In this document: piece after piece, positions 26,941 to 60,446 of the stretch
How the letters are laid out: every line of letters begins with the position of its first letter
Position numbering within the stretch: position 1 is the stretch's first letter
DNA from: Candidatus Cloacimonadota bacterium
Lineage (GTDB): Bacteria > Cloacimonadota > Cloacimonadia > JGIOTU-2
Length of the DNA: 64,000 nt
Reading direction: 5' to 3'
Assembly: GCA_023129415.1 (NCBI GenBank)
Contig: JAGMCF010000151.1
Coordinates: 1,616-65,615 of the forward strand
The notes under the pieces: model-generated
Seen by the model: the letters and a program-made list of their open reading frames with translations, nothing else
Database searches by the model: none
Told to the model about the DNA's origin: nothing
Translations under genes and position numbers: made by a program

Positions 26941-27140
26941 TTAACCCCGTTTCTTACTTTTTGGAGTGCTTGCCTTCGCGTAGCCTATCTTCCATTCCAA
27001 TATAATCTGGATTGAGGGCAGGCTACGGCGAAGCGAGGCGAAAACGATCCCCGATTTATTCGGGGAGAACTTTTCGCAAGTCTCGTTATGCTGAAAGTTC
27101 GTCTCCCGATAAATCGGGATCCTCGTTTCAGCACTCCACA
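26941..27140. repeat. GC-rich composite hairpin element
   Basis: Outer arms ggagtgct (26963-26970) and agcactcc (27130-27137). Arms gccttcgcgtagcct and aggctacggcgaagc. Nested tccccgatttattcgggga and tcccgataaatcggga. The 66-aa track ORF here is rejected. Confidence 0.8.
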
Positions 27141-27614
27141 TTAAAACTCTTTTATTAAAGCAACAGCATAAACTTTTATACCTTCACCTTTTCCTACAAA
27201 TCCCAGTCCTTCTTCTCTTGTGGCTTTTATAGAGATTTGTCCTATTTCAATGTCAAGTTTATCAGCAATATTACTTTTCATTGATGGAATGTATTTCTGT
27301 AACTTAGGCTTTTCAAGAACAATAGTTGAATCAATATTAATTATATAAAATTCTTTGTTAGCCAAAATCTTACCTGTTTCTTCTAATAAAATTAAACTGG
27401 AAATGTCTTTATATTTTGAATCCGTATCAGGAAAATGAGAGCCAATATCTCCCAAGCCAGCTGCACCGAAAAGTGCATCAATAATGGCATGTATCAATGC
27501 ATCACCATCTGAGTGACCTAACAATCCCTTTTCAAATGGGATTTCAACTCCACCTAATACAAGTTTTCTATCCTTTACTAAAGGATGCACATCATAACCG
27601 AAACCTATTCTCAT
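27141..27614 (-). CDS. ispF: 2-C-methyl-D-erythritol 2,4-cyclodiphosphate synthase
   Basis: [12 protein letters not shown]...[33 protein letters not shown]. The track start at 27647 is a GTG; the ATG at 27614 is preferred. Confidence 0.95.
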
Positions 27615-27740
27615 ATTTTTTAACCCTAATTCGACACAGAAGAACACTGATAAGGCTGATGACCGCTGATTAAATAAAATATCTAATTTAATGGAATAAT
27701 ATAACTTTTCATCAGTCTCACCGCTTACACAGGGCGTTAA

Positions 27741-28457
27741 TTAGCGTCGTTTCTGTGTGCTATTCATATTTTTCGACATAATCGCTTCTGCAATTTTCAA
27801 ATCAAATTTATCTGTAATTTTAATATTTTCTGGTGAACCTTCCAAAACGAAAACAGGCACACCTATCTTCTCTACTAATTCTGCATCATCATTCGCAAAA
27901 AATCCTGTATCAAGAGATTGTTGATGTGCATCATAGATAATTTGGAACCGAAAAGCTTGTGGTGTAAAAATTTCCCAAAGATATTCTCTTGGCAACGTAT
28001 TAACTACTTCGTTATGAGTCACAGATTTTATTGTATTTTTTACCGGTAAACCATAAGAAACAGCACTCTTTTCATAGACAATATCTACAATCTCTTTAAT
28101 TTCTTCTACTTTTACAAATGGACGAACTCCATCGTGAATCACTACTATATCTCTATCAGATGGAGAAACTTCTAAAGCATTTAATACTGATTGCTGTCTT
28201 GTTTCTCCACCATTCACAATGATAAATTTATTCTGAGGAAATTTATATTCATTAAAAAATAATTTTCTGGCAAACTGCATATCTTCTGGATTTAATGTAA
28301 CTAAAATTTTATAAAAAATATCTGCTTTGAGAAATTTCTCAATTGTATGAATTACGATTGGTTTTCCGGCAAGTAGCATAAACTGCTTTTTTACAGATGA
28401 ATTCATCCTTTCACCTTTTCCTGCGGCAGTGATGATTGCTGAGATTTTGTTTTTCAT
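27741..28457 (-). CDS. ispD: 2-C-methyl-D-erythritol 4-phosphate cytidylyltransferase
   Basis: ISAIITAAGKGERM...KQF, VVIHDGVRPF. Confidence 0.9.
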   Translation of the reverse strand: MKNKISAIITAAGKGERMNSSVKKQFMLLAGKPIVIHTIEKFLKADIFYKILVTLNPEDMQFARKLFFNEYKFPQNKFIIVNGGETRQQSVLNALEVSPSDRDIVVIHDGVRPFVKVEEIKEIVDIVYEKSAVSYGLPVKNTIKSVTHNEVVNTLPREYLWEIFTPQAFRFQIIYDAHQQSLDTGFFANDDAELVEKIGVPVFVLEGSPENIKITDKFDLKIAEAIMSKNMNSTQKRR

Positions 28458-30093: not shown

Positions 30094-30106
30094 TATTCAA
30101 TCTTAT

Positions 30107-30187
30107 TAGCCACAAAATCACACAAAAATTCACAAAAGGCAAAAAAAATAATAATTCTTTTCGTGTTATTTTGTGTTTTTTGTGGCT
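30107..30187. repeat. Long imperfect hairpin between the TonB receptor stop and the ribF start
   Basis: Arms agccacaaaatcacacaaaa (30107-30126) and ttttgtgttttttgtggct (30169-30187). Ends 14 nt upstream of the ribF ATG. Confidence 0.7.
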
Positions 30188-30225
30188 TATTCCAAATTTC
30201 ATAATTCAATATACTATCCTTGTAG

Positions 30226-32643: not shown

Positions 32644-32649
32644 ATTAAC

Positions 32650-32940
32650 TCATTTTTGGGAGTGCTTGCTCTGTTAAGCAAAAGGCGACAGACCCCTCAA
32701 TTAAATCTGTTCATTATACATAACTCTGTAGATTGGCTTCTACAGAGCATTTAGAAGCCCACGATTTTAATCGTGGGTAACAATGGGAATCCACATTTCT
32801 AACCATTTTAATGGTTTATAAATTTGATAAACCGTTGAAACGGTTGATATTTTAGCCTTTTATTCTTATTATACCCACAAATGAATTTGTGGGCTTCTAT
32901 GGAGAATTCCATATTTGTGTATAATGGATAGCAATTAAAT
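32650..32940. repeat. Cluster of at least 5 short perfect hairpins upstream of the TonB receptor gene
   Basis: ctctgtagattggcttctacagag, cccacgattttaatcgtggg, aaccattttaatggtt, aaccgttgaaacggtt, cccacaaatgaatttgtggg. Confidence 0.8.
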
Positions 32941-33621: not shown

Positions 33622-33640
33622 ATAAAAAATCCTAAATCCT

Positions 33641-33657
33641 CCCGACATTTGTCGGGA
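33641..33657. mobile_element. 17-nt hairpin module flanked by a perfect 9-bp direct repeat
   Basis: cccgacatttgtcggga between ctaaatcct (33632-33640) and ctaaatcct (33658-33666). Confidence 0.6.
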
Positions 33658-33776: not shown

Positions 33777-33960
33777 ATAATTAGTGTCTGTTCGTAAAGT
33801 CATTGTTTGTAGAACGACCTTTCCGTCTGGGCGCCGAGACCGACCAAGGTCGTTAATGTAAATAGGCTTTTCATGCCAAAGGCAGATCCCTCGGAAAATG
33901 TGCCTTAAGAAAACGAGCTAGGAACCTCGTTCTACATTTACGGACAGACTCTAATTAATT
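33777..33960 (-). mobile_element. MITE-like element, copy A (TIR-bounded, non-coding)
   Basis: Reverse complement of copy B apart from a few substitutions and a 25-nt insertion at 33871-33895. Termini are ttagtgtctgttcgtaaag and catttacggacagactctaattaa. The right TIR encodes the last 7 codons and stop of nrnA. Confidence 0.7.
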
Positions 33961-40316: not shown

Positions 40317-40473
40317 TAATTAGTGTCTGTCCGTAAATGTAGAACGAGGTTCCTAGCTCGTTTTCTTAAGGCACATTTAAAGCCTATTTACATTAACGAC
40401 CTTGGTCGGTCTCGGCGCCCAGACGGAAAGGTCGTTCTACAAACAATGATTTTACGGACAGACACTAATTAAT
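40317..40473 (+). mobile_element. MITE-like element, copy B (157 bp, perfect 21-bp TIRs)
   Basis: taattagtgtctgtccgtaaa (40317-40337) and tttacggacagacactaatta (40453-40473). Internal hairpins gaacgaggttcctagctcgtt and aacgaccttggtcggtctcggcgcccagacggaaaggtcgtt. No ORF. Confidence 0.75.
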
Positions 40474-45094: not shown

Positions 45095-45278
45095 TAAACG
45101 GCATTTCAGACCTACCTGCGGTAGGCAGACATAACAGAGTCATAGTAGAACTTCGCCTGACTTCGCCGTGGAGCTGATGGCAGGGCACTTGCTCTTTGGT
45201 TGAGTTTTGTGCCCTTTCAGAGCTTATTTTGAGATTAGCAGCAGCGCCCCCAAACCTGCCGCAGCTCACGCTTGACCG

Positions 45279-45407
45279 TTATTCTTCCAATTCCTCAAAC
45301 TTCTTTCTCCCCTTTTCAGTAATAATTCTAAAATCTTCTTTTCTAACTGTTATACCTTCTGTATCAAATTGAGTAAGCATCAAAAGGCATATTTTGCGAT
45401 TACCTTA
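45279..45407 (-). pseudogene. Duplicated 3' end of selB (42 codons plus stop), detached copy
   Basis: About 90 percent identical (12 mismatches in ~126 nt by my count) to 46098-46228. Translates without interruption as GNRKICLLMLTQFDTEGITVRKEDFRIITEKGRKKFEELEE*, versus selB GNRKICLLMITQFDSEGITVRKGDYRFITEKGRKKFEELED*. Confidence 0.85.
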
Positions 45408-45601: not shown

Positions 45602-45883
45602 ATGCGTATAGAATTTGAATGGGATTCTGACAAAGGAAATAAGAATATCAAGAAACACAGTGTTTCTTTCAATGAAGCTGCAACGATATTTGGCGATCCT
45701 CTGTCTATGACTTTTTACGATCCTGACCATTCCATTGACGAAAACCGATACATCACTATCGGGTTATCATATCTGGGAAAACTGCTTATTGTTTCACATA
45801 CAGATCGGGTGGAGCGCATACGTATCATTGCAACGCACCAAGAGAGTAAATTTTATGAAGAACAAAAATTACACAAAAACTGA
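45602..45883 (+). CDS. brnT: BrnT-family toxin (DUF497)
   Basis: MRIEFEWDSDKGNKNIKKHSVSFNEAATIFGDP...RYITIG...LLIVSHTDR...IRII is the DUF497/BrnT pattern. Confidence 0.85.
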   Translation: MRIEFEWDSDKGNKNIKKHSVSFNEAATIFGDPLSMTFYDPDHSIDENRYITIGLSYLGKLLIVSHTDRVERIRIIATHQESKFYEEQKLHKN

Positions 45884-46094
45884 TAACGAGCTTCGGGCTG
45901 AGTATGATTTATCTCAGTTACATGGAGGTGCCAGGGGTAAATATGTCCAGCGTTTTAACGAAGGTACAAATTTAGTGCTGATAGCCCCAGATGTTGCAAA
46001 GGTTTTTCCAAGTGATAAGGCAGTGAATGAAGCATTACGGTTACTTATGAAAATCGCAAAGACACAAGTCAAACAGAGAGTTCACCTAGGGTGA
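45855..46094 (+). CDS. brnA: BrnA-type antitoxin
   Basis: ATG at 45855, within track ORF 45735-46094. 79 aa, EYDLSQLHGGARGKY pattern. Overlaps the brnT end by 29 nt. Confidence 0.7.
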   Translation: MKNKNYTKTDNELRAEYDLSQLHGGARGKYVQRFNEGTNLVLIAPDVAKVFPSDKAVNEALRLLMKIAKTQVKQRVHLG

Positions 46095-46101
46095 TTTTTC
46101 G

Positions 46102-48054
46102 TTAGTCTTCCAATTCCTCAAACTTCTTTCTCCCCTTTTCAGTAATAAATCTATAATCACCTTTTCTAACTGTAATACCTTCGCTATCAAATTGTGTAAT
46201 CATCAAAAGGCATATTTTACGATTCCCACCTACCAAATCACGGAACTCCGAAACTTTTATACCCTCTTTATGCTCTGAAAGATACTTCAGTAATACATTT
46301 CTGCACTTATTTACAACTAAAGAATAAATAAAATTTCCCTCAATATTATATATTTTACCTTGATTCGTTAATAAGTTAAGAATCTGTTTTAACTTATTCT
46401 CATCAATATCTTGTGCTTTTGCTTGTGGAATCAATTCTGAAATTAGCGGAGTTTTCATTCCAGAATTTTGAATATAATCCTCTACAAAATCCACTTGCTT
46501 TTTATTTTCTGAAGAAAGAATCACATTATGAGATTTCAAAGCCCAGGTATGATGAACTTTCTTTAATTTATTCGAATCTATCATTTCTTCTAAAATCAGT
46601 TTCATCATATTTTCAGTTGTTGAATCACGGTTGATTCCAAACAAACCCATCAATTCCTCAAAGTTTCTGCCCCGTTCATCAAAGGGATTTCTTTTATGAA
46701 AAGTTTCTAAATTTCGTATAACTTTCTGTTCCAGCTTCTCTTTCTCCTTTTTGAGCATCAAATATCCCTTTTCCTTTGAAGAAATAACAACAATATCTTC
46801 AGGTAAAGATTTGGAAACAACTTCCTGGATATTCTGTTTGGGAATATTTAGAATATCTCCAATTTCCTGGTAACTAACAGGGATTAATCTTTTTCGCACT
46901 TCTGCGGCAATCAATTCAGATACTCCTCCTTCAGTTACTTTACGAAGTTCACTTATAAGTTTTTTAGTTCTACGACGATGGTGGAGAGGATGCGCATCAA
47001 TTATTTCACCTCCACCAAGAGTAATATCACAAGAACTACTTCGAATAACAAATCTATCTCCATATTTTGCAATACAAGGTGAATCAAGATGAATTTGAAC
47101 GATTGCTGTTTTCCCTGGTTCGAGCAGGTTTTTGTCTATAAAATGAATCCGAGCTTGAGCTTGATATGTACCCAAAAGGAAAACCGCTTGAGTCCAGATT
47201 TTAAAATTCCTATTATGTTGAAAAAGTGTAAGTTTTGCATCTATCATTGTTGTGGCTTGCAAAATCCTATCAGAAACACTCATACCTCTCTTAAAATCAT
47301 CCTTGTTCAAACCGACAAGATTTAAAGAAGCTCTATCCCCAGCAGTTATCTCCTCAACCTCATTACCATGACGTTCCATACGACGAATTCGTAATTTTTT
47401 CTCTACTGGTAAAAGATATACTGAATCCTTTTTCTTCAAATGCCCACTAATAACTGAACCATTTACTATCGTTCCAAAACCCTTTACACTAAAAATTCTA
47501 TCAATAAACATTCTGAATAGTTTACCAGTGTGTCTTTGTTCAACTTTGGAACACATTTCTTGTAAAAACTCTTTCAATTCACCGATACCTTCTCCCGTTT
47601 TTGCAGAAATTTTTATGACTGGGAAATCTTGCAGAAATGTTCCTTTTGTAAAATCTGAGATTTCTTCTTCAGCTATCTGGAGAATTTCTTCTTCAACAAG
47701 ATCAATTTTAGTTAAAGCAACAAATCCTTTTTTTACTCCGAGAATCTCCATAATTTTAAGATGTTCAACTGTCTGTGGCATTACTCCACTATCTGCAGCA
47801 ATTACAAGCATAACAAAATCAATACTGCTTACCCCAGCAACCATTGTGTTTACGAAATCCTTATGACCGGGAACATCTATGATACCTATACTATTTCCAC
47901 TTGGCAAATCAATATGAGCAAATCCGAGATTTATTGTTATTCCGCGTAGTTTTTCTTCTTTGTGAGTGTCGCAATCTATATTTGTTAATGACTTTATTAA
48001 AGCAGTTTTGCCATGGTCAATATGACCGGCAGTTCCCATTATTAGGTGTTTCAT
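46102..48054 (-). CDS. selB: Selenocysteine-specific elongation factor SelB
   Basis: GTPase motifs [17 protein letters not shown]. Long C-terminal winged-helix extension (650 aa). Adjacent to selA and tRNA-Sec. Confidence 0.9.
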   Translation of the reverse strand: MKHLIMGTAGHIDHGKTALIKSLTNIDCDTHKEEKLRGITINLGFAHIDLPSGNSIGIIDVPGHKDFVNTMVAGVSSIDFVMLVIAADSGVMPQTVEHLKIMEILGVKKGFVALTKIDLVEEEILQIAEEEISDFTKGTFLQDFPVIKISAKTGEGIGELKEFLQEMCSKVEQRHTGKLFRMFIDRIFSVKGFGTIVNGSVISGHLKKKDSVYLLPVEKKLRIRRMERHGNEVEEITAGDRASLNLVGLNKDDFKRGMSVSDRILQATTMIDAKLTLFQHNRNFKIWTQAVFLLGTYQAQARIHFIDKNLLEPGKTAIVQIHLDSPCIAKYGDRFVIRSSSCDITLGGGEIIDAHPLHHRRRTKKLISELRKVTEGGVSELIAAEVRKRLIPVSYQEIGDILNIPKQNIQEVVSKSLPEDIVVISSKEKGYLMLKKEKEKLEQKVIRNLETFHKRNPFDERGRNFEELMGLFGINRDSTTENMMKLILEEMIDSNKLKKVHHTWALKSHNVILSSENKKQVDFVEDYIQNSGMKTPLISELIPQAKAQDIDENKLKQILNLLTNQGKIYNIEGNFIYSLVVNKCRNVLLKYLSEHKEGIKVSEFRDLVGGNRKICLLMITQFDSEGITVRKGDYRFITEKGRKKFEELED

Positions 48055-48073: not shown

Positions 48074-48420
48074 ATGTACGCTAATTTACGCAAATATTTT
48101 TTCTTTGCCACGAATTTACCCTGTGAAATCCTTCAAAGAAGGAATCCCGATATATCGGGATTATTTCACAGGGCAAGCACGAACTGGCACGAACATTTAT
48201 GTATCAATGTAAAAGGCATTTTTGTATTTCTTGTGATACATAATCTATATCACACTTCGCTGGTTCAAGTATGTTACTTGAACCGTTTATTTTAATTCTC
48301 CGGTTCAGATTGCAAATCTGAACCAGCATATAGATTTTAATTTTTGACCTCATCCCTAACCCTTCTCCTATGAGGAGAAGGGAACTAATCTCCCGCGTTT
48401 TAGGAGAAGATTAGTGCAAG
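48074..48420. repeat. selA-selB intergenic region filled by at least 6 hairpin modules
   Basis: ccctgtgaaat[ccttcaaagaagg][aatcccgatatatcgggatt]atttcacaggg, ggttcaagtatgttacttgaacc, ggttcagattgcaaatctgaacc, cccttctcctatgaggagaaggg, ctaatctcc..ggagaagattag. Frame gccacgaatttaccc...gggcaagcacgaactggcacgaaca is shared with 50468-50573. Confidence 0.8.
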
Positions 48421-49834: not shown

Positions 49835-49963
49835 AAAAAAGCCACAGATTCACCCCGTTAGATAACCTTGCTCTATGCGATAACAAAATACATTGGCTGT
49901 AAAAAATTTTACCTCATTACATAAAACAATTAATGGACAAATATCTAACGGATTAATCTGTGT
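49835..49963 (-). promoter_or_regulatory. Long hairpin plus U-tract between tRNA-Sec and the selA start
   Basis: Arms gccacagattcaccccgttagat (49841-49863) and atatctaacggattaatctgtgt (49941-49963), with a ~77-nt AT-rich loop. On the minus strand the 3' arm is followed by tttttt, then AGGAA and the selA ATG 12 nt later. Confidence 0.5.
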
Positions 49964-49984
49964 TAAAACATTTTTATGAATTAG

Positions 49985-50076
49985 CAGAGAGGGCAGGAAT
50001 CGAACCTGCCACAGACGGTTTCATCCGCCCACTACTGGTTTTGAAGACCAGCCGAAACACCAGTTCCATCCTCTCT
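49985..50076 (-). tRNA. selC: tRNA-Sec (anticodon UCA)
   Basis: Minus strand: AGAGAGGATGGAACTGGTGTTTCGGCTGGTCTTCAAAACCAGTAGTGGGCGGATGAAACCGTCTGTGGCAGGTTCGATTCCTGCCCTCTCTG. Anticodon loop CUUCAAA; 6-bp anticodon stem; D stem (U)GGAAC/GUUUC(G) with 4-nt loop; long variable arm GGCGG-AUGAAA-CCGUC; T arm GCAGG-UUCGAUU-CCUGC. No encoded CCA. Ends uncertain by 1-2 nt. Confidence 0.85.
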
Positions 50077-50111
50077 TTTTCTTCTCTATAAACTAATTAT
50101 TGAATTATTAC

Positions 50112-50325
50112 TTAACTCAAGTTTCGCACTTGATAACTCTATTCCCTCTGTAACACGGATCCCCGCGTCCGCGGGGACTGTTCCGTTTGTATTATGAATC
50201 TCTGGTTCATAATCCGAAGGATCTCCCGACAAGTCGGGATCTGTCTCGGGCATGATGCCTTCGGCATGATATGGAGCAGAGCTCCTTCTGGCAGACGCTT
50301 CAGAGAAGCGTGTTACAATTTTTAA
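50112..50325. repeat. GC-rich mosaic element, inverted paralogue of 43806-43998
   Basis: Shared backbone: aaaattgtaacNcgcttctctgaagcgtctg / aaggagctctgctccatat / aaccagagattcataataca / ccgtgttacNgagggaatagagttaNcaagtgcgaaacttgagtta. Extra modules at 50214-50270 and 50160-50177. The 87-aa track ORF here is rejected. Confidence 0.8.
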
Positions 50326-50467
50326 TAGTCTTTCATCAATAATTGCCAATGTAAATATTCAATATAAACAAAGAAATTTTGAAGTATATTTTTGTCAAAC
50401 TTATTATATTTATTGTATAAGTAGTTTTTATCCAAAGTTTTCAGTTATTACATTTTCATCTGAAAAT

Positions 50468-50640
50468 CCTTTTTAGCCACGAATTTACCCCGTTAGATAG
50501 CACCCCATTAGAATAGGAAGTATCTAACTAGGAAGAATATCTAACGGGGCAAGCACGAACTGACACGAACAAAATCTTATTCATAAAATTACACTCTCAT
50601 TCCCAAGCCCTCCCCAATTGAATTGGGGATTGGGAATGCT
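50468..50640. repeat. GC-rich hairpin elements upstream of the tRNA-Sec region
   Basis: gccacgaatttacc-ccgttagata...tatctaacgg-ggcaagcacgaactgacacgaaca (50468-50573), and the nested attcccaagccctccccaattgaattggggattgggaat (50591-50629). Confidence 0.8.
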
Positions 50641-50651
50641 TAATGCCATTT

Positions 50652-52361
50652 TCATGATCCTTTCAGGCTCGGCGCCCAGACGGGTGTGTCCCGATTTGTT
50701 TTCGGGACAAGAACAACATAAGTTGGCAGTCCAAGCACTCCAAAATAATCAAGAATTTCTTTCGTTGGAGATTCGTTTAGATTTTCTGCTTTATATTTCA
50801 CCCAGACATAGTTTTCAAGTTTTTCAACAACTTCATCATCCTTAAAAGTCGTAGCATCCATTACCAAACAGTTTTTACACCATGTAGCCCAGAAATCAAT
50901 CATTACAGGTTTTCCTTCTTTTTTTGCTTTTTCAAGTCCTTGAGAAAAAGAATATATCCATGGAAGAGTTGATGTTTCTTCTGCGACTTTAATTTGCTCT
51001 ACAGACTTTAATCTGCTGTGAAATATCTTTACTCCTGTATAACCATAATAAATTGCTATAACAAAAATAATAACACCAAAAATATATTTAATCCAGTCCA
51101 TCCAATTTCCTGGTTTAGGAAGGAATGAAAGACCAGCACCAGCAAATGGCCAGGGGATTGCCATTCCTGCTCCAAGTAAAAATGGTAGCAATAGTCCTGC
51201 TGAATTTCCTTTGGCATAAAGCGTTGTGGAATACAGAATGACAGAAATTAGGACAGGGGCGACACATGCTCCTGCAAGAACAGCAGCAATAACACCCAAT
51301 ACAAAAACGGTTATAAATTTTCCTCTACTTTTTCCTTGTATATTACCACTTCTAAATTTTGAGAAATCAATTGGAATGATATCAAACATAGCCAGTGCAA
51401 GAAGCACAAAGATTACCGCAATAATAATATTAAACCAAGGAGAAGCATTAATGGCACCAAATTTTGAGCCCGTTAAAACCACGATAACCCCAAGCGCTCC
51501 ATAGGCTAAAGTCATACCAAGTCCATAGGTCCCGCCAATTAAAAATCCCCTACCTTTTGATTCTGATTGGGTGCCAGCCCCAAGCACAGCGATTGTAATA
51601 GGTATCATTGGAAGAACACAGGGAGTAAGATTAAGTGCTATCCCTCCAATCAAAATCAGTAGAACAACTAACCAAATACTTTTCCCGGTAAATGTATTAG
51701 AATTAAAATCATTTGAACTTTCCGCCTGATCTAAAAAGGCGATAAATTCATTACTTTTTTGATATCCTCCGGTGACACCTGCAATAACAAAATCATCTAA
51801 TAATTTTTTAATTTCATTAAACTCATAGTCTGAAGTAATATGCTTTGTGGAAATTATTTCCTTTAGAGAAGCAATACTATCTTCTTTGTTAATACTGCCA
51901 ATGGTAACAGGTAATACCAATTCAACCTCTTCAGGAAAAAGGCACAGACCAGCATCATCACAAAATTGATAGCCAGCCACAACTTTTATTTCGTAAAAGC
52001 CATGCTTAACCTTTTTACTAACAGTAAAATCTCTTATTAAGGTAACCTTATGATGATAAGTTATTACTCCATCTTTATCTTTTTCTCCTACTGGATAAAC
52101 AGTGGACTTAAATGAAATTCCATCTATTTTATCAACTTCAATAAAAAAATAATCCTTTTCCAGAAGTTGATGATGTCCTGGAGGAATTAAAAAATTAACA
52201 CTAATTTGTCCTTTTTGTCCTATTTTGATTGTTTCAGGTTCAATTTTTCCTGAAACAACTTGTTCTTCTGCAGAAATCTTCACAACAGAAAATATAAAAA
52301 GAATTGCGATGAGTATAATATAGTTTCTTTTTTGTGTCATCGTGCCCATTTTCTTCATCAT
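50652..52361 (-). CDS. DsbD-like thiol:disulfide interchange protein (CcdA-type membrane core plus C-terminal thioredoxin domain)
   Basis: Signal peptide, LNLTPCVLPMIPITI (DsbD/CcdA transmembrane Cys motif), C-terminal FWATWCKNC thioredoxin motif. The last ~17 codons (VPKTNRDTPVWAPSLKGS) lie in a repeat module. Confidence 0.8.
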   Translation of the reverse strand: MMKKMGTMTQKRNYIILIAILFIFSVVKISAEEQVVSGKIEPETIKIGQKGQISVNFLIPPGHHQLLEKDYFFIEVDKIDGISFKSTVYPVGEKDKDGVITYHHKVTLIRDFTVSKKVKHGFYEIKVVAGYQFCDDAGLCLFPEEVELVLPVTIGSINKEDSIASLKEIISTKHITSDYEFNEIKKLLDDFVIAGVTGGYQKSNEFIAFLDQAESSNDFNSNTFTGKSIWLVVLLILIGGIALNLTPCVLPMIPITIAVLGAGTQSESKGRGFLIGGTYGLGMTLAYGALGVIVVLTGSKFGAINASPWFNIIIAVIFVLLALAMFDIIPIDFSKFRSGNIQGKSRGKFITVFVLGVIAAVLAGACVAPVLISVILYSTTLYAKGNSAGLLLPFLLGAGMAIPWPFAGAGLSFLPKPGNWMDWIKYIFGVIIFVIAIYYGYTGVKIFHSRLKSVEQIKVAEETSTLPWIYSFSQGLEKAKKEGKPVMIDFWATWCKNCLVMDATTFKDDEVVEKLENYVWVKYKAENLNESPTKEILDYFGVLGLPTYVVLVPKTNRDTPVWAPSLKGS

Positions 52362-52411: not shown

Positions 52412-52445
52412 TCAACAAAAAGGCGGAATATTTCTATTCCGCCCC
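52412..52445 (-). terminator. Rho-independent terminator of the YVTN-repeat gene
   Basis: Minus strand reads ggcggaatagaaatattccgcc followed by tttttgttg. Confidence 0.8.
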
Positions 52446-52712
52446 TTGTTACCCTTGCGAAGGTTTAGAACCTTCGCAAGGTTCTTTGTTTCCAATCTTA
52501 ATTATCTTATCAAAATTTATTATACGACCTGTCCTTCGTAGTCTTGACGAAGGAGGAAGCACCACTTCGTCCTGATGATCCCCAATTCCTGAGCTCGTCA
52601 GGAACGGGCTTAATCGGGGAGGGACTTCGTAGTGTAAACTTTTCTGAACTCCATAGTTTTAACGAAGGAGTTAGCGAAGGAGAATTTATCCTCCGAAGCC
52701 TTAGCGAAGGAG
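52446..52712 (-). repeat. Conserved 3'UTR backbone with 4 extra hairpin modules (paralogue of 56633-56782)
   Basis: 59 nt (52469-52527) are identical to 56671-56729. Extra modules at about 52528-52557, 52573-52621 and 52644-52671. A 12-bp direct repeat ttagcgaaggag (52671-52682 and 52701-52712) flanks an 18-nt spacer. Confidence 0.85.
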
Positions 52713-55286
52713 GATCATTTTCTTGATTTGAGACTTAAAGTTCGTGGTTTCTATCTGATAGAAATAGATTCCGGACGATAGCTTTTTGCCACTCTCATCT
52801 TGTCCATTCCAGGCTACAGAATGTTTGCCAACGGTTTCTCTACTATGAACCAACTTCTTTACTAATTGTCCTCGTAGATTATAGATATTAAGGATAATTT
52901 TCCCGGGTTTTTGCAATTGGTAGGAAATGATTGTTTCAGATCTTAACGGGTTGGGATAGTTTTGTCCAAGTTTCGCTACAGGAGGCTGACCACTGTATGG
53001 CTCTTCTACACTAACAACGAAACTGTCTGTGATTACCGAAATGTTGCTAGAATATGGATTAGCAATGTAAACACTGTTTTGAAACTCGTTCCATATTCCA
53101 GCATCTGGTCCTATGCCCACAGGAATGGTAGCAACAACCTCATTAGTTCCTCCATCAATAATGGTGACATCGTTACTCCACCAGTTACCACAATAGACCT
53201 TGTTGTTAATAGAGTTCCAGAGCAAGAAATCTGGCATAGCTCCAACTGAAATAGTAGTAATCACCTCGTCCGTCTCACCATTGATAACAGTGATGTCATC
53301 ACTAAAATCGTTTGCACAGTATATTTTATTATCTATAGAGTTCCAGACCAGGTCCCATGGCATGTCACCTGCAGGAACAGTAGTAATAACTATATCACTT
53401 GCACCATCAATTATAGTGACATCGTTACTTAACTGGTTAGCACAGTAAACCTTATCGTTGGTAGAGTTCCAGCAAAGAGCTTGAGGCCCTGTCCCCGCTG
53501 GGATAGTAGCGATAACCGCATTTGTCTGACCGTCAATAACAGTGAGATTATCAGTAAATATATTCGCATGATACACCTTATTGTCGGTCTGATTCCAACA
53601 CAAGACACCCCATGATTCATCAGGCAAAGGCACGGAAGCAATAATTGCGTTACTCACTCCGTCAATGATATCTACCGCATATCCTTGACAACCACAGTAA
53701 ACCTTATTATTGATCGAATTCCAGCAAAAACCTTGGGGTCCCCATGTTACTGGGATTGTGGTGATAATGTTATTAGTTTGTCCATCAATGATGGTTACAT
53801 TGTCACCCCAGTAATTTGAGCAGTATATTTTGTTGTTAATGGAGTTCCAGATAAGAGCCCAAGGGGTCTCTCCTACTGGGATATTAGTAATAACCTGATT
53901 AGATTCTCCATCAATCACAGTAACGCTATTGCTCATCTGATTTGCTGAATAGACCTTGTTGTTGGTGGAGTTCCAAGTAAGTGCGCGAGGTTCATCCCCT
54001 ACCTGGATGGTGGAGACCAACCCGTTTGTCTCACCATTGATAATTGCTACCTTGGCACCATTGTGATCCACACAGTAAATTTCATTTTCTATGAGGTTCC
54101 AAGCCATATCCTGAATATTGGTACCAATTGAAAGTGTAGTGATGACTTCATCTGTCTCTCCATCAATGATGGTGACACTCTGACCTGTATAGCCGTTTGC
54201 ACCACAGTAAACTTTATTGTTAACCTGATTGCAACACATATCACGTGAATAGGAACATACAAGTGGAATAGTAGTAAGTACGGTATTTGTCTCTCCATCA
54301 ATGATAGTGATACTGGGCGATGACTGATTGGACGAATACACCTTGTTGCTCACAGGATTCCAGATGATCCAGAGCGGCTTATCTCCTACAGAAATAGTAG
54401 TAATCACTGTATTTGTCTCTCCATCTATAATAGTAATATTATCACTTCCACAGTTTGCACAGTAGATCTTATTGTTAGTTTCATTCCAGCAAAGGCGACT
54501 GGGGTTAGTGCCAGCTGGAATATTAGTGATGACCTGATTCGTTATTCCATCAATGACCGTCACAGTTCCATTTTCCCAGTTAGCACAATAGACATTATTG
54601 TTAGTTGAGTTCCAGACAATACCGTAAGGATTGCCACCGACTGCAATCTCCGTAATAATTGTATCCGTTTCACCATCAATCACGGTTACAGTGCCGCTAT
54701 AGAAATTAGCTGCATAGACCTTATTCTCGGTCTGATTCAGAGTTAGCTCGTAGGGCTGATCTCCCACAGGTAAAGTAGTAATAATTGTATCTGCCACACC
54801 GTCAATGATAACCACATTAGCACTGTAGTACATATCACTTGAGCAATAGATCTTGTTATTGATAGGGTTCCATATTATACTCCAGCAAACTCCATTAAAT
54901 GGAATTAGTTTGGTCCTTTGATGAGTGGCTCCACCAAAGACAATAACGCCTTCTTGAGAATCGTAATAGCCACCTCCACCAACATAGATCTTATTGTTGG
55001 CATTACAAGTAACACTTCTAGGACCATACATACCGCCCAGACTATCTGGCAAAGTAATGGTTGTTTCAAGCCATTGTCTTGGTGTATATCCATCACGTAT
55101 TCTATCCTTACTCTCGAATACCTCAAACTCGTTAGTAAATGCTGACATCCCTTGCTCGAGCTTAATCTTAACACCTGGTTCCAGCAATTTGCCGGAATAT
55201 TCCCGAGGCTTTTTCACCTCGTTAGCCGAAAGCCCAAAGCCCACAAAAAGTAGGATGGACATAGTTATTAGCATTGCTTTTTTCAT
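52701..55286 (-). CDS. YVTN-family beta-propeller repeat protein with T9SS-type C-terminal sorting domain
   Basis: Start at MKKAMLITMSILLFVGFG (AAGGAG RBS). About 16 repeats of VTVIDG-TN-VITTIPVG--P--L-WN--NNKVYCAN. C-terminus NYPNPL...IYNLRGQLV...GIYFYQIET. The track start at 55397 is rejected. Confidence 0.8.
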   Translation of the reverse strand: MKKAMLITMSILLFVGFGLSANEVKKPREYSGKLLEPGVKIKLEQGMSAFTNEFEVFESKDRIRDGYTPRQWLETTITLPDSLGGMYGPRSVTCNANNKIYVGGGGYYDSQEGVIVFGGATHQRTKLIPFNGVCWSIIWNPINNKIYCSSDMYYSANVVIIDGVADTIITTLPVGDQPYELTLNQTENKVYAANFYSGTVTVIDGETDTIITEIAVGGNPYGIVWNSTNNNVYCANWENGTVTVIDGITNQVITNIPAGTNPSRLCWNETNNKIYCANCGSDNITIIDGETNTVITTISVGDKPLWIIWNPVSNKVYSSNQSSPSITIIDGETNTVLTTIPLVCSYSRDMCCNQVNNKVYCGANGYTGQSVTIIDGETDEVITTLSIGTNIQDMAWNLIENEIYCVDHNGAKVAIINGETNGLVSTIQVGDEPRALTWNSTNNKVYSANQMSNSVTVIDGESNQVITNIPVGETPWALIWNSINNKIYCSNYWGDNVTIIDGQTNNIITTIPVTWGPQGFCWNSINNKVYCGCQGYAVDIIDGVSNAIIASVPLPDESWGVLCWNQTDNKVYHANIFTDNLTVIDGQTNAVIATIPAGTGPQALCWNSTNDKVYCANQLSNDVTIIDGASDIVITTVPAGDMPWDLVWNSIDNKIYCANDFSDDITVINGETDEVITTISVGAMPDFLLWNSINNKVYCGNWWSNDVTIIDGGTNEVVATIPVGIGPDAGIWNEFQNSVYIANPYSSNISVITDSFVVSVEEPYSGQPPVAKLGQNYPNPLRSETIISYQLQKPGKIILNIYNLRGQLVKKLVHSRETVGKHSVAWNGQDESGKKLSSGIYFYQIETTNFKSQIKKMILLR

Positions 55287-55453
55287 CTTAACTCCTTTAT
55301 TCCGCCAGTTAACTGCGGAATTTTTTCTCTTTTTTCGATTAACATAATAATGAGCACTTCTCAATAGAAGTATCTCTCCTATTTTAGACATTAACATTCC
55401 GACATTTTCCCCAATAAAAATAAGTGTCTAAAAACAAAATCAGATACACATTT

Positions 55454-56597: not shown

Positions 56598-56632
56598 ATA
56601 AAAACGAAAGGCGGAATATTGCTATTCCGCCC
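56598..56632 (-). terminator. Rho-independent terminator of the FG-GAP gene
   Basis: Minus strand reads ggcggaatagcaatattccgcc followed by tttcgttttt. Near-identical to the 52412-52445 terminator. Confidence 0.8.
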
Positions 56633-56782
56633 CTTGTTACCCTTGCGAATCCCCAATTAAATTGGGGATCAAACCTTCGCAAGGTTCTTTGTTTCCAATC
56701 TTAATTATCTTATCAAAATTTATTATACGAAGCACCACTTTGTCCCGAATATAGGGACTTCGTAGTGTAAACTTTAGCGAAG
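56633..56782 (-). repeat. Conserved 3'UTR backbone (paralogue of 52446-52712) with one private hairpin insertion
   Basis: Private module tccccaattaaattggggatca (56649-56670) sits in the loop of ccttgcgaa..ttcgcaagg. The small hairpin gtcccgaatatagggac sits where the other copy has a 49-nt nested structure. Confidence 0.85.
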
Positions 56783-59761
56783 TATAATCATTTTCCTAAT
56801 TTCTGATTTGAAATTCTTAGTTTCGAGTTGATAGAAATATACACCATTTGACACCAATTTTCCAGAAAAATCTTTTCCGTTCCAATATATGGAGTAGCCC
56901 CGATGTATCGGGGCTATTGTGGAGAGAGACTCTCCACACTCCAAAGTTTTCACTAATTGCCCCTTGATGTTATAAATCTTTATCTGCCGTGATCCGTGTA
57001 AATCTGTGGCTAAATTAAATGAGATCGTAGTATATATGCTGAAAGGATTAGGATAATTCTGTAAAATAATTGAATTTTTCACTTTTGTTGATTGCTCATC
57101 CACACCAACTATTGCATCAAGTCCTCCTGAATAGCAATATACCCAGCCATTTCTACCACCAACCACCATTTCCATTGAACCATCACAAGCAATATCTGGG
57201 ATTGCTGCAATAGCATCAACAGGTGTTCCAACATATATTGACTCCAATTCTGAGCCATTTACTCCATTAAGGAAATAAGCATAATTATTTGAGTAAAGAG
57301 TTCCAACAACCAAATCATTAATTCCATCTCCACTTACATCAGCAATTCTTGAAGCATTCCACGGTTGGTCTGCAACTGGATGATTCCAAATTTGATTTCC
57401 ACTATATCCATCAACTACAAGAGCATTATGAAAACCGCTATGTGCAATAACAAAATCTGAATAGCCATCACCGTTTACATCATCTAATTTGTCCAATCTA
57501 AGTATGATGGCTGTTCCAATGTAACCATTATAGATTTCATCTCCATTTGTTGGATCAATAAAATAATAATGCCCACTAAAGTCACCGGAAATAATATCCT
57601 TAATTCTATCTCCATTGACATCATCTAACTGTGCTAATGCCCAGACAGAGGAACCAGGAGTATCAAATGACCAGAATATAGTACCAGTTTCTCCATTAAT
57701 ACCATAGGCATAACCTATGGTTTCATATTCATTAGAAGCACCAGCCAATACATCTGGTTGTCCGTCACCTGTGCAGTCTTCAATTCCAATTACAGAGAAA
57801 CCGGGTCCACCTAATGGGCATTCCCAAATTGATAATCCAGTTAAACCATCAAGACAATATATTCTTTTTGGACCTGTATCGCTTGCATCATCACCAGTAG
57901 AAGCCAAAACATCAAGAACACCATCACTGTTATAATCGTATTTACAATTAACCTGATAGACCCAGCCACCGCTTCCATATTCGTGTGTATCATGTGTCCA
58001 TATAGTTTCTCCCGTTTTTCCAGAAAGTGTATGTATTGAACGGTCACCACCTGTAGTGCCTACAACTACATCTTTATAGGAATCACTATCTACATCTTGT
58101 GTAATAAATAAACCACGATGTGAAAAGATATTTCCTGAATATATTTCTTTCTCCCAAAGAATATCTGCATAACCAGAAGAATTTCCATTAAAGCAACGAA
58201 TATAATTATCTTCTGAACAGATAATTACATCATCAATATCATCATAATTAATATCGGAAATATGTTCAATTGCTTTGGGACTATTATCCCAGCTCGTTGT
58301 TATTTGATATTGCCATAAAGTCTCACCAATTTCATAATCAGAATCATCACCTGTTCCTTCTAAAGTTACTTCAACAGGATCTTTTCCAGGATCATTACTT
58401 ACGATAAACAATGTTCCTTCATATAAAATAGCTTCTTCAGGATTAAACCAGATACCAATTTGGACAGTATCAAGGACATTTATATTTATTGGAAAACTTA
58501 CATCAGAATCCACAATAAAGTGAGTATCATCACAGTAAATACTATCTATCACTAATGTGGAATCTCCAATGTTTTGAATCTCCATAAACCAGCGAGTTAT
58601 TGCATTGATTCTCACTAAACCGTAATTATGGCTTGTTACGGGTACATAAATACTTGGTCCCGGATTAACTGCATTTCCTGTAAGAGTAATATCAACTTCT
58701 ATGTGTAATGGGTCATTAGATTGTATTGTTGCAATTGCGTTTAAAGGTTCAGGATTTATTGGTGTATATATAAAAGGTATTTCTTCTTGATTTCCAGGAT
58801 TGATAGTTATTGGAAATTCAAGGGGGCAGGTAACACAAATATTGTATCCTGTGAAGTAGACATTATCAATCACTAAATCTGCAGTGCCGATATTTTCAGC
58901 AATTGCATTCCAGGTTGCAGAATCTCCGATAGTTACAGTTCCAAAGTTATGATTTGTAATTGGAACATAGATCTCTGGTGTTCCACCTCCTCCTAAATCA
59001 ATCTTGTAAAGAAAGTCAACATCATAACCTTCTCCATTATCACAATACCAGAGATATTGTCCATCAAATACAATACCTGCGGGATCAACACCTTCTGAGG
59101 GGTATGTCTCTAAAAGAGTTCCATTTGAAGCATCAATCATATAAAGCGCATCTCCCCAGTAGTCAGCCATCCATAGATTGTCGTATTCAATACATAGATC
59201 CCATGGTTGATTATCCGGTGCTGGAAATTGAGTAAAAATATTTCCCAGGGTATCAACCTTATAGATCTCACCATTAGGATCGTAATAGGCAGCAACCCAG
59301 AAATCTCCCTCATCATAAGCAATGCCGGACATATAGTGAGTTGGAAGATCAAATTGTGAAATTAAGTTACCGCTCATATCAAGTTGCATAGCAACAGCTG
59401 GAATTGAACTGCTTCCCGGATGATCGGTTGTCCAGAGATATGAGCCATCATAGGTAAGCCCAAAAGCATCTCCTTGGGGTCCTGTAAATAGTAGAGAATA
59501 ACTTCCATCGCTCGGGTCAATCTGGTATATTCTACCTCCATCTGCGCCATAGATTCCACAGTAAAGATTTGTGCCATCATAAGCAAGTCCGGAAGCACTT
59601 TCTGGAATGGGGTAAGTTGCTACAATCGTCCAATCACGATTTTTTAAACTATTATTTTCAAATTCATTTGCTTGAAGATTATTTGAAGAGCTCGCTAATA
59701 CAAATGTTGGTAATATTAACAAGGTAAGAAATAAGCCAATCATTTTACTTTTTTTCATCAT
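56774..59761 (-). CDS. Large secreted protein: N-terminal propeller-like region, two Ig-like (HYDIN/ASH-type) domains, FG-GAP/VCBS repeats, T9SS-type C-terminal sorting domain
   Basis: Signal peptide. Repeated HNFGTVTIGD...GTADLVIDNVYF and HNYGLVRIN...GDSTLVIDSIYC. FG-GAP-like DVNGDGYSDFVIA, DVSGDGINDLVVG, DCTGDGQPDVLAG. C-terminus NYPNPF...IYNIKGQLV...GVYFYQLET. Confidence 0.75.
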   Translation of the reverse strand: MMKKSKMIGLFLTLLILPTFVLASSSNNLQANEFENNSLKNRDWTIVATYPIPESASGLAYDGTNLYCGIYGADGGRIYQIDPSDGSYSLLFTGPQGDAFGLTYDGSYLWTTDHPGSSSIPAVAMQLDMSGNLISQFDLPTHYMSGIAYDEGDFWVAAYYDPNGEIYKVDTLGNIFTQFPAPDNQPWDLCIEYDNLWMADYWGDALYMIDASNGTLLETYPSEGVDPAGIVFDGQYLWYCDNGEGYDVDFLYKIDLGGGGTPEIYVPITNHNFGTVTIGDSATWNAIAENIGTADLVIDNVYFTGYNICVTCPLEFPITINPGNQEEIPFIYTPINPEPLNAIATIQSNDPLHIEVDITLTGNAVNPGPSIYVPVTSHNYGLVRINAITRWFMEIQNIGDSTLVIDSIYCDDTHFIVDSDVSFPININVLDTVQIGIWFNPEEAILYEGTLFIVSNDPGKDPVEVTLEGTGDDSDYEIGETLWQYQITTSWDNSPKAIEHISDINYDDIDDVIICSEDNYIRCFNGNSSGYADILWEKEIYSGNIFSHRGLFITQDVDSDSYKDVVVGTTGGDRSIHTLSGKTGETIWTHDTHEYGSGGWVYQVNCKYDYNSDGVLDVLASTGDDASDTGPKRIYCLDGLTGLSIWECPLGGPGFSVIGIEDCTGDGQPDVLAGASNEYETIGYAYGINGETGTIFWSFDTPGSSVWALAQLDDVNGDRIKDIISGDFSGHYYFIDPTNGDEIYNGYIGTAIILRLDKLDDVNGDGYSDFVIAHSGFHNALVVDGYSGNQIWNHPVADQPWNASRIADVSGDGINDLVVGTLYSNNYAYFLNGVNGSELESIYVGTPVDAIAAIPDIACDGSMEMVVGGRNGWVYCYSGGLDAIVGVDEQSTKVKNSIILQNYPNPFSIYTTISFNLATDLHGSRQIKIYNIKGQLVKTLECGESLSTIAPIHRGYSIYWNGKDFSGKLVSNGVYFYQLETKNFKSEIRKMIILR

Positions 59762-59944
59762 AACTCCTTTTTGATTTTGTTATGTGTAAAGTAAGCATTT
59801 TTTCTCCATTTGAATTTTGAGCTTACTCTAAAAAGGTCAAAATTAAAACATGTTAGAAAATCTTTCAAATATTTGGAAACCGATCCCAGTTAAATAAAAA
59901 AGGATTTAACGGGACAAGTGAATCGGTTAAGAGTTACTATCTTA

Positions 59945-60040
59945 TTATTAACCACCAACTTAAGTTGGTGGTTAATGAAACAAAAAAAAGCATTAACCGT
60001 TTTACTCGTCTGGGCGCCGTAGCCTGAACGGTTTCGTATT
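59945..60040. repeat. Palindrome ttaaccaccaacttaagttggtggttaa plus a GTCTGGGCGCCGTAGCCTGAA module
   Basis: 28-nt perfect palindrome at 59951-59978. aaccgttttactcgtctgggcgccgtagcctgaacggtt at 59996-60034 carries the same 24-mer found (inverted) at 11103-11126. Confidence 0.8.
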
Positions 60041-60446
60041 TTATTAAATATGACTTTTTAGAGTGGACTCAATTTTATTTAATCAAATTTAATATTTTTT
60101 TAAATAGCTTCAATTAAAATTGTCAAGAAATAATTTCAAATATTTTTTTCTTAACTAATAAAGATAAAATAGAGTAAAGATAAGAACATAACTTTGTAAA
60201 TTGATTAAACACCGTAAACACTGAAATGCACCGAAAAAAGATAATTACTTTCGGTGTTCCTCGGTGTTCTCGGCTTGCCTCGTAAGGAAGAATGACCCCA
60301 GTTGGATAAAAGAATCAAACGGGGTAAACTGTATCGGGGTGGTGAATAAAAACATTGAAATTCCGATACAATAAAACACGGTGTCCACCCGAATAGGCAT
60401 GAACACCGCTTTGATTTTTCAATTCTAATATTTTTTATTTTAAATT

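Follow-up and report, generated by a model that had tools for sequence, protein, structure and literature searches.

Small hairpin repeats in the spacers of a Cloacimonadota chromosome: several families, probably mobile and nested in one another

The window analysed here is a 64,000-nt segment of a bacterial chromosome (Candidatus Cloacimonadota assembly GCA_023129415.1, contig JAGMCF010000151.1) with a GC content of 32%, in which nearly all genes lie on the minus strand. Pfam searches identify in it housekeeping genes (ispF/ispD, truB, rbfA, infB, nusA, rimP, groEL and clpB), a selenium cluster (a NifS-SelD fusion, selB, selA and tRNA-Sec), cargo proteins of the type IX secretion system (T9SS) and a polysaccharide locus. 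An earlier note, made from the sequence alone, listed 14 gaps between these genes that are filled with DNA built from a small set of recurrent self-complementary words. I report that these repeats form several families, probably mobile, that are nested in one another. Most of them fit known kinds of repeat, namely miniature transposable elements with inverted repeats (MITEs), repetitive extragenic palindromes (REPs) and the mosaic type represented by bacterial interspersed mosaic elements (BIMEs) and Neisseria intergenic mosaic elements (NIMEs), of which they are a lineage-specific, previously undescribed variant.

The SelA and GroEL proteins of the window are identical to proteins in Candidatus Cloacimonetes/Cloacimonadota metagenome-assembled genomes (MAGs) deposited at NCBI and ENA. 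Two of these assemblies, GCA_030629245.1 (NCBI) and ERZ23498859 (ENA), which come, like the window, from different submissions, match it at 99.85–100% identity with zero gaps across the repeat-filled part. Related Cloacimonadota loci that were compared with the window are designated below by L-numbers (L009, L011, L016 and so on).

Recurrent words and hairpins in the spacers

The recurrent words that the earlier note named are all present, nearly all at the positions it gave. CCCGAT..ATCGGG occurs at 11431, 12490, 27105, 48146 and 56899, TCCCGAC..GTCGGGA at 33640, 43006, 44486 and 50224, and CCCCAATT-N-AATTGGGG at 50612 and 56651. The fourth word, GTCTGGGCGCC, is found at 33825, 43843, 44528 and 60008 and, on the minus strand, at 11110, 40414 and 50671; it is the 11-mer core of a module of roughly 22–24 nt, CGTCTGGGCGCCG(T)AGCCTG, hereafter called the G-module. 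Two copies had been misplaced by 7–10 nt, the CCCGAT copy at 48146 (given as 48156) and the CCCCAATT-N-AATTGGGG copy at 50612 (given as 50605). The words are strongly enriched within the window: CCCGA-N3-8-TCGGG was observed 11 times against 0.02 expected, and GTCTGGGCGCC has 7 exact occurrences against 0.06 expected. Likewise, the window contains 43 perfect hairpins (stem of at least 6 bp including at least four GC pairs, loop of 3–9 nt), as opposed to 2–6 in each of ten first-order Markov shuffles, and 31 of the 43 fall within the 14% of the window that is non-coding.

Folding gives the same picture. The fold z-scores of all 14 listed gaps, computed on both strands against shuffles, range from -2.9 to -9.6, those of the other spacers of the window from +1.5 to -4.4. 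Fold energies are about equal on the two strands of the gaps, and DNA palindromes therefore fit better than strand-specific RNAs. The repeat feature is thus real and statistically robust. The description of the gaps as GC-rich holds in a relative sense (32–51% against 24–34% GC in the other spacers); three or four of the 14 hardly exceed the genome mean. The list was also incomplete, since the segment 30106–30189 uses the same vocabulary.

A single window-wide family, as initially proposed, is not what the alignments reveal; there are several families with common words. Three pairs of paralogs (33778–33959/40317–40471, 43741–43998/50112–50325 and 52419–52712/56607–56790) are 95–100% identical outside insertions or deletions of whole modules, which bears out the claim that paralogous copies differ mainly by complete hairpins. 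Three other regions (26941–27140, 42955–43140 and 60073–60446) have no second copy, beyond the mini-hairpin words, among the spacers and loci compared.

Three layers of repeats

All-against-all comparison of the spacers, detection of inverted repeats and comparison with the related loci resolved the repeats into three layers (Table 1). The first comprises at least four elements that, judged from their sequences, qualify as ordinary MITEs, with terminal inverted repeats (TIRs) of 16–28 nt. MITE1 to MITE4 are about 148–260 bp long, contain no open reading frame (ORF) and fold into long hairpins. Their TIRs measure 21 nt in MITE1, 17–19 nt in MITE2, 16 nt in MITE3 and 28 nt in MITE4, within the span of roughly 10–40 nt expected of MITEs, and include the sequences GAGCTTACTCTAAAAAG, TAATTAGTGTCTGTCCGTAAA, TAACTCAAGTTTCGCA and AGAAGCCCACGA. 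MITE1 and MITE3 are both present twice in the window. MITE2 is shared with L011, and MITE4 with L009, L018 and L032. The right end of MITE1 copy a provides the stop codon of the DHH gene.

MITE2, which contains a hairpin with a 13-bp stem and a G-module lodged within an AACCGTT..AACGGTT hairpin, is flanked by a 6-bp target duplication, AATTTT (59813–59818 and 60071–60076). Its second copy (L011 3477–3729) lies in another MAG, is 91% identical and is flanked by the duplication ATATAA; identity is confined to the element and the flanks are unrelated. Such 6-bp duplications, together with a 91%-identical copy in unrelated flanks, are the signature of cut-and-paste insertion: MITE2 owes its insertion to a reaction in which 6 bp of an AT-rich target become duplicated.

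The second layer consists of sense-oriented intercistronic cassettes. The X-Y-T cassette of the window is made up, in this order, of a hairpin GTCCCGA..TCGGGAC, the block CACCCGTCTGGGCGCCGAGCCTGAAAGGA-NN-ATGAAAAT, the hairpin AAGCATTCCCAA[CCCCAATTCAATTGGGG]..TTGGGAATG, whose apex bears a mini-hairpin, a further hairpin enclosed by three TTCGTG iterons, and AAAGGATTTTCAG-ATG. This arrangement, in the same order, is present in at least eight other loci from at least four Cloacimonadota assemblies; there the first hairpin shows compensatory variation, and the downstream parts are interchanged between a few types. One X-cassette unit in L016/L036 is devoid of the G-module, and in L036 three units lie head to tail in a 660-nt spacer. 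In every informative copy (9–10 copies) the X cassette is sense-oriented between co-directional genes, starting a few bases from the upstream stop codon or, as in the case of DsbD, supplying the last codons of the upstream gene, and a Shine-Dalgarno-like AAAGGA is located 7 nt before the downstream ATG. The earlier note did not remark on the strict sense orientation of this cassette type, which pure selfish spread does not predict. The CACC, AGGA and ATGAAAAT that flank the scanned motif are invariant in 10 copies; in the predicted cassette hairpin, CC is bound to the GG of the AAAGGA that lies just ahead of ATGAAAAT, and, by reading of the sequences, a short upstream ORF closes at an overlapping ATGA in 7 of the 10. 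The possibility that the X unit is itself a small ORF was rejected, its frame not being conserved because the length of the hairpin varies.

T modules share the iterons of the cassettes. The CCCTGTGAAAT..ATTTCACAGGG hairpin of the copy upstream of selB accommodates two smaller hairpins in its loop. In the T-module copy of L033 (5788–5921) each arm of the CCCATTAGATAGC hairpin is present three times in tandem, which suggests slippage inside the palindrome. The adjoining hairpins downstream of selA (48216–48420) end in 77 nt that are conserved in a relative with an 87%-identical SelA, whose contigs end there. The variable arm of the neighbouring tRNA-Sec (49984–50077), GGGCGG-ATGAAAC-CGTCTG, has 6–7-mers in common with the X cassette, namely ATGAAAC, which lies at the X start, and CCGTCTGGGCG, which lies in the G-module; a relationship between the variable arm and the X unit was considered and the word sharing was judged to be probably due to chance.

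The third layer is made of mini-hairpins of 16–24 nt, which are of two types: (A)TCCCS-loop-SGGGA(T) and the G-module. The window and the related loci (about 170 kb) contain 49 hairpins of the former type, 14–22 nt in length and mostly in spacers. Only three short hairpins lie within ORFs (11427, 50687 and 56895). The GTCTGGGCGCC core is exact in the seven window copies, which occupy three different contexts, and almost no diverged copies are found within two mismatches. Where it is in frame (11100–11121 and 50652–50685), the G-module makes two unrelated proteins end alike, a phospholipase-C-like protein in ...VWAP-stop and DsbD in ...PVWAPSLKGS-stop; the native C-termini of both have been replaced by repeats.

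At several sites a mini-hairpin or other small module is carried by one copy and missing from another, with precise boundaries. The 25-nt module of MITE1 copy a is absent from copy b. MITE3 copy a has received a 55-nt G-module-plus-hairpin insertion (43843–43897), and copy b carries the 18-nt hairpin TCCCCGCGGACGCGGGGA in the loop of an ACGGAAC..GTTCCGT hairpin at 50.16 kb that is free of it at 43.77 and 43.94 kb; the 55-nt inserts of the two copies differ in both site and kind. The internal AACCATT..AATGGTT loop of MITE4 is empty in the window and holds a 24-nt G-module in L009 and L018. The apex of the CCTTGCGAA hairpin bears TCCCCAATTAAATTGGGGA at 56.65 kb, not at 52.46 kb. A single site between TTCGTG iterons, empty in the window, is occupied in L031, L041 and L036 by a G-module hairpin of 52–55 nt or by another hairpin. 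Nesting reaches three levels at 52575–52620, and at 44528–44598 another hairpin is nested in the loop of a G-module hairpin. The paralogous mosaics at 52.4 and 56.6 kb differ by three extra or alternative hairpin modules in the former. Junctions of the mini-modules display no target duplication, and often 1–3 host bases are replaced. The preference for hairpin loops suggested by the earlier note is partly borne out: many modules sit at apexes, but of roughly a dozen module indels that could be scored only about half do so, the rest being located between hairpins or iterons.

Table 1. Repeat features of the window
Feature	Coordinates	Strand	Description
Solitary G-module CTCGTCTGGGCGCCGTAGCCTGAAAGGA	11097–11125	-	3' end of the phospholipase-C-like ORF; supplies ...VWAP-stop
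Mini-hairpin AATCCCCGATTTAATCGGGGATT	11427–11449		within ORF 11106–11957; encodes KSPIKSGI
Iterons and mini-hairpin	12440–12503		CAACGAA/CACGAA iterons and CCCGATTTATCGGG; upstream of smpB
Nested palindrome, unique	26941–27140		two inverted mini-hairpins, 27048–27066 and 27104–27119 (REPIN-like doublet); GCCTTCGCGTAGCCT...AGGCTACGGCGAAGC hairpin; z -8.7/-8.9
Iteron palindrome	30106–30189		GCCACAAAA/CACAAAA iterons, vocabulary as in T modules; hairpin revealed by a chance miRNA-like Rfam match
MITE4	32752–32899	+	28-nt TIRs, a CCCACRA..TYGTGGG hairpin in each
Mini-hairpin TCCCGACATTTGTCGGGA	33640–33657		directly upstream of truB
MITE1 copy a	33778–33959	+	TIR TAATTAGTGTCTGTYCGTAAA, 21 nt; extra 25-nt module at 33871–33895 in AGGC..GCCT loop
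MITE1 copy b	40317–40471	-	perfect 21-nt TIRs; without the 25-nt module
Nested-hairpin cluster, unique	42955–43140		ATCCCGATAGATACGGGAT adjoining TCCCGACTAAAGTCGGGA; CCGTAGTAG..CTACTGCG hairpin; z -8.2/-6.7
MITE3 copy a	43741–43998	+	TIR TAACTCAAGTTTCGCA; internal direct repeats of ACGGAACAGAGTTCCGT hairpin
Cluster	44405–44620		reuses the 58-nt module: 44456–44513 is 50212–50269 reversed
T module	48095–48215	-	three TTCGTG iterons and hairpin CCCTGTGAAAT..ATTTCACAGGG; upstream of selB start
Hairpins downstream of selA	48216–48420	-	three 10-bp stems: 48262–48284, 48302–48324, 48360–48382
Degenerate T-like module	49835–49963	-	CACAGATT..CCGTTAGATA...TATCTAACGGGG..TCTGTGGC; abuts selA start codon
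MITE3 copy b	50112–50325	-	one end truncated; carries the 58-nt module
X-Y-T cassette	50455–50722	-	fills the spacer to the downstream ATG; 5' part is the last DsbD codons
3'-untranslated-region mosaic after 898-aa T9SS gene	52419–52712	-	ends in intrinsic terminator, 52422–52443 and T-run
3'-untranslated-region mosaic after 995-aa T9SS gene	56607–56790	-	same terminator; TCCCCAATTAAATTGGGGA at apex of CCTTGCGAA..TTCGCAAGG hairpin
MITE2	59819–60070	+	TIRs GAGCTTACTCTAAAAAG / CTTTTTAGAGTGGACTC
Hairpin series downstream of groEL	60077–60446	-	promoter-like AT-rich stretch and unique hairpins

Several features of the neighbourhood are recorded here in their own right. A DUF433/DUF5615 (VapC-like) toxin-antitoxin pair (26250–26852) lies directly upstream of the first repeat-filled gap. 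The ORF at 40549–42747 fuses a class-V aminotransferase (NifS/selenocysteine-lyase-like) to SelD (AIRS domains), two parts that are separate genes in the relative L029. A 128-nt direct repeat, 91% identical (45277–45404 and 46100–46227), duplicates the 3' end of selB and flanks a BrnT/BrnA toxin-antitoxin cassette (45602–46094) on both sides, as if the cassette had been inserted and the target region duplicated in the process. Near by, an unrepeated stretch of 67% GC (45011–45301) spans the RGG tail of an RRM-domain RNA-binding protein (44804–45094) and about 200 nt downstream; a structured RNA in its distal part (45095–45290) was rejected, the fold z-scores being only -1.2 and -0.3. About 12 tandem 126-nt (42-aa) repeats, 60–80% identical, occupy 53107–54818 in the ORF 52701–55397, which encodes a YNCE-like beta-propeller T9SS cargo protein. 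Between an epimerase gene and smpB, a 9-nt tandem repeat, CAGTTCAAC, is present in 8–9 copies (12506–12586) and adjoins the CACGAA iterons and a mini-hairpin. Finally, between two 99.8%-identical Cloacimonadota populations (L037 2374–3252, L039 5326–6275) one gene is cleanly replaced by an unrelated one; by their reading frames alone, one of the swapped genes resembles a Thi4-like thiazole synthase, the other a ThiM-like hydroxyethylthiazole kinase.

Distribution and resemblance to known repeats

The G-module was sought by an exact-pattern scan of 185,579 species genomes. It was found in 13 places, 11 of them in Cloacimonadota MAGs (five assemblies), the two others being chance matches in genomes of 67–71% GC, and a scan of metagenomes led to the same few populations. 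TCCCCAATTAAATTGGGGA is shared by the window and L016. Altogether, at least five Cloacimonadota assemblies carry the modules, at sites that are not orthologous, and copies are dispersed in this manner both within and between species. By contrast, relatives whose SelA is 67–71% identical are devoid of the whole vocabulary, even when two mismatches are allowed; in one of them the selA-selB spacer is 29 nt long, as opposed to 347 nt in the window. The conservation of the 21 scanned bases across the fetched loci is in part a consequence of the loci having been found by means of them. Selection by exact matching does not, on the other hand, account for the seven 11-mers of the window in three contexts, for the invariant CACC, AGGA and ATGAAAAT flanks or for the near-absence of diverged copies.

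Viral contigs, when scanned, yielded nothing or chance matches in contigs of 62–67% GC, and a viral origin was dropped; no plasmid similarity was found for the repeats. Searching against Rfam 15, at the gathering threshold or, for the 26–61 kb portion, with E-values up to 5, retrieved only tRNA-Sec and chance matches, and ribozyme, riboswitch and omega-RNA readings were abandoned. The literature on Cloacimonadota that was searched contains no mention of palindromic repeats, inverted repeats or transposable elements.

The earlier note could not match the combination to any known class of repeats. This holds as far as Rfam is concerned, but not for the MITE-like elements and the REP-like mini-hairpins, nor for the mosaic arrangement, which has precedents in BIMEs and NIMEs. 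MITE1 to MITE4 resemble MITEs such as Correia/NEMIS and the Nezha elements of cyanobacteria in their TIRs, small size, lack of an ORF, folding into long hairpins, presence in several copies and insertion next to or into gene ends, to which MITE2 adds a target duplication. They differ in having no sequence similarity to any described family and no parent insertion sequence (IS) in the window or the loci compared, in sharing sub-modules between families and in hosting secondary hairpin insertions. Correia/NEMIS elements have a 26-bp TIR of defined sequence, a TA duplication and a length of 104–157 bp; here the TIR sequences are unrelated and the duplication of MITE2 is 6 bp of AT-rich sequence rather than TA. 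The palindromes of Rickettsia (RPEs), which are in-frame insertions of 100–150 nt in protein genes, differ as well, the elements described here residing in spacers and gene ends and displaying no homology to them.

REPs are imperfect palindromes of 20–40 nt that occupy extragenic DNA in high copy number. Like REPs and their inverted pairs (REPINs), the mini-hairpins, of 16–23 nt in this comparison, are mostly extragenic, downstream of ORFs, sometimes in inverted pairs (27048/27104) and occasionally inside genes. Their GC-rich stems of 5–10 bp are closed by A-T pairs and their AT-rich loops are 3–5 nt long. No consistent REP tag was apparent: a CGTC-, TGTC- or CCTC-like sequence lies within 8 nt of 13 of the 49 hairpins and GTAG is present at 3 of 49, the flanks being instead T...A (ATCCCS..SGGGAT), and no REP-associated tyrosine transposase (RAYT) was detected in the sample of about 400 kb described below. 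CGTC-tagged REPs, found in Bacteroidetes/Chlorobi, have no dedicated transposase either, and their stems are 8–9 bp long (Di Nocera et al. 2013, PMC3733652); those in the window are shorter. The apex nesting, up to three deep, also goes beyond the self-complementary loops of GTAG-3 and GTAG-14 REPs (PMC3733652).

The mosaic aspect recalls the BIMEs of Escherichia coli and the NIMEs and dRS3 of Neisseria, where spacers are likewise built combinatorially from a few short motifs, some of them palindromic and common to composites. The consensus of dRS3 is ATTCCC-N8-GGGAAT, and the ATTCCCAA...TTGGGAAT and ATCCCS...SGGGAT hairpins are similar in form. The motifs are different, the phylum is unrelated, the arrangement is nested here and linear there, and no phage or IS110-type integrase was seen here. 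Both BIME and NIME have been named as intergenic mosaic elements (PMC3184786).

Three further systems invite comparison, for the cassettes in particular. The X-Y-T cassettes resemble mycobacterial interspersed repetitive units (MIRUs) in being oriented, intercistronic and provided with short overlapping ORFs that suggest translational coupling. MIRUs are tandem units of 46–101 bp without strong hairpins, which lie in operon spacers in a specific orientation and whose short ORFs overlap the neighbouring stop and start codons; the cassettes are 200–270 nt long, hairpin-rich and mosaic. Palindromic elements derived from IS200/IS605 (PATEs) share with the cassettes a subterminal hairpin at either end, an orientation that is fixed with respect to (leading-strand) genes, the lack of a target duplication and head-to-tail arrays abutting a short conserved sequence, here TTTTCAK|ATGAAA. 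PATEs have a specific tetra- or pentanucleotide target and a TnpA in the genome; no TnpA or TnpB was found here, in the case of TnpA in the sample of about 400 kb described below, and the end geometry was not matched to any known member. This resemblance is a lead only. GC-rich hairpins that invade AT-rich spacers without flanking duplications, with conserved stems and variable loops, are also known from organelles, namely the repetitive hairpin elements (RHEs) of sponge mitochondrial DNA (PMC2800124), the palindromic repeats of Volvox (PMC2670323) and the mitochondrial GC clusters of yeast; the genomes are organellar there, whereas here the host is the chromosome of a free-living bacterium that also carries bona fide MITEs. 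Apex nesting on this scale, and sub-modules common to otherwise unrelated MITE families, exceed what the accounts of these systems describe.

Mobile DNA, host elements or local rearrangement

On balance I consider it probable that the gaps hold lineage-specific small hairpin repeats of a Cloacimonadota clade, most likely non-autonomous mobile DNA moved in trans and arranged in three tiers. The MITEs would be moved by transposases encoded elsewhere in the genome; at least one of them was inserted by a cut-and-paste (DDE-type) mechanism, with duplication of 6 bp of AT-rich target. The cassettes occupy operon spacers from stop to start codon, always in the sense orientation. Probably only copies that preserve downstream translation survive, as proposed for mycobacterial MIRUs; the Shine-Dalgarno sequence and chains of short ORFs overlapping at ATGA junctions would keep the downstream gene translated and thereby allow the cassettes to persist. 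The mini-hairpins would spread in a REP-like, duplication-free manner, through either a HUH/RAYT-like enzyme that acts on single strands only or short-patch copying. The apexes of hairpins would be favoured because they are single-stranded when extruded and because insertion there leaves the host hairpin intact, and nesting would accumulate over time.

A number of observations weigh against such mobility. As the earlier note had said of the window, no transposase domain is present, at least in any of its ORFs of 73 aa or more. No Y1/RAYT homolog was detected in the ORFs of about 400 kb of related Cloacimonadota DNA, a sample of genomes searched by phmmer with IS608 TnpA and the E. coli RAYT (best E-values 0.02–0.04, that is, noise), and no ORF was present in several copies among the loci compared that could be a candidate transposase. 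Two assemblies of the same strain have no indel over 14.3 kb (99.85% identity, zero gaps). Look-ups of exact proteins for further assemblies of that strain returned the same contigs only, and strain-pair differences in the Ga0315547 and Ga0315541 contigs, considered as possible clean empty sites, proved to consist of a gene replacement and a break in synteny. Target duplications are clear only for MITE2, the flanks of MITE1, MITE3 and MITE4 being AT-rich and ambiguous. The scans of sequence collections demanded exact 21-mers, which makes the taxonomic range a lower bound. Moreover, the exact GTCTGGGCGCC core looks more like the result of functional constraint than like decaying junk, and the strict sense orientation of the X cassette together with its position at the start codon could mean a host function.

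These last two points keep alive the idea that the cassettes and modules serve the host as cis-acting RNA elements, either 3'-UTR stabilisers and terminators or intercistronic devices that couple or gate translation, with GTCTGGGCGCC as a protein- or RNA-binding motif. The X cassette does begin close to the stop codon of the upstream gene and reach as far as the next ATG, with predicted pairing of its Shine-Dalgarno sequence, most copies have the ATGA overlap, the invariant CACC, AGGA and ATGAAAAT stand beside a hairpin that varies with compensatory changes, and the paralogs at 52.4 and 56.6 kb contain real intrinsic terminators. Yet, relative to genes, G-modules and mini-hairpins point either way; they are also found within TIR-bearing MITEs with a target duplication and even within coding sequence, and close relatives manage without the elements. 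The genes downstream of the cassettes have no functional relationship (dnaJ, asnS, selA, selB, a lipoprotein and a methylase gene), and the fold energies are symmetrical between strands. Nor do the copies make up one conserved structured-RNA family, the finding that the earlier note had named as fatal to its proposal: indels of whole modules dominate, and the X block is invariant, hence without covariation within it. A host RNA function is therefore unlikely as an account of the repeats.

A different view is that only the MITEs transpose, the mini-hairpins having arisen or been homogenised locally by template switching, slippage at palindromes and gene conversion. The duplication-free junctions with their replaced host bases are as expected of such events, as are a 'perfected' 13-bp stem in one paralog (52453–52481) where the other has a different apex (56641–56685), the triplicated hairpin arms in L033 and the two different inserts at one inter-iteron site. 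De novo template switching would, however, give site-specific sequences rather than a common vocabulary, and identical modules of 17–24 nt (TCCCCAATTAAATTGGGGA and the G-module) are found at unrelated sites and in different species; gene conversion requires flanking homology, which several sites lack. I regard a purely local origin as quite unlikely. Faulty metagenome assembly or binning, with chimeric joins or collapsed repeats, might be suspected of having produced the pattern, since the source is a MAG and contigs of relatives break at the repeats. The three assemblies agree gap-free over the repeat-filled regions, however, and the same architectures are encountered in independent MAGs and in JGI metagenome contigs of up to 249 kb; the pattern is accordingly not an assembly artefact, a possibility that can be considered remote in the extreme.

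If the repeats are mobile DNA as proposed, this clade, whose uncultivated phylum is common in anaerobic digesters, has a zoo of MITE- and REP-like repeats of its own. They break short-read assemblies, the contigs of relatives ending at them, and the contigs of the relative with 87% SelA identity stop where they begin. They rewrite gene ends, since DsbD, the phospholipase-C-like ORF and the DHH gene take their last codons or stop from them, and they have expanded operon spacers ten-fold, as between selA and selB. It is rather unlikely that they will in addition bring to light something new in kind, which would be either an undescribed class of ultra-small mobile elements, above all the near-invariant G-module, that insert duplication-free at single-stranded apexes with the help of a putative Cloacimonadota enzyme recognising the GTCTGGGCGCC core, or, in the X block, a translation-gating cis-acting RNA. 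The mover of CGTC-tagged REPs was left as an open question (PMC3733652), and the apex-targeted mini-hairpins with their exact 11-mer would offer a concrete starting point in the search for an enzyme by which REP-like hairpins without a RAYT are moved. The sense-locked cassettes, for their part, would be a testable case of selfish DNA tolerated inside operons.

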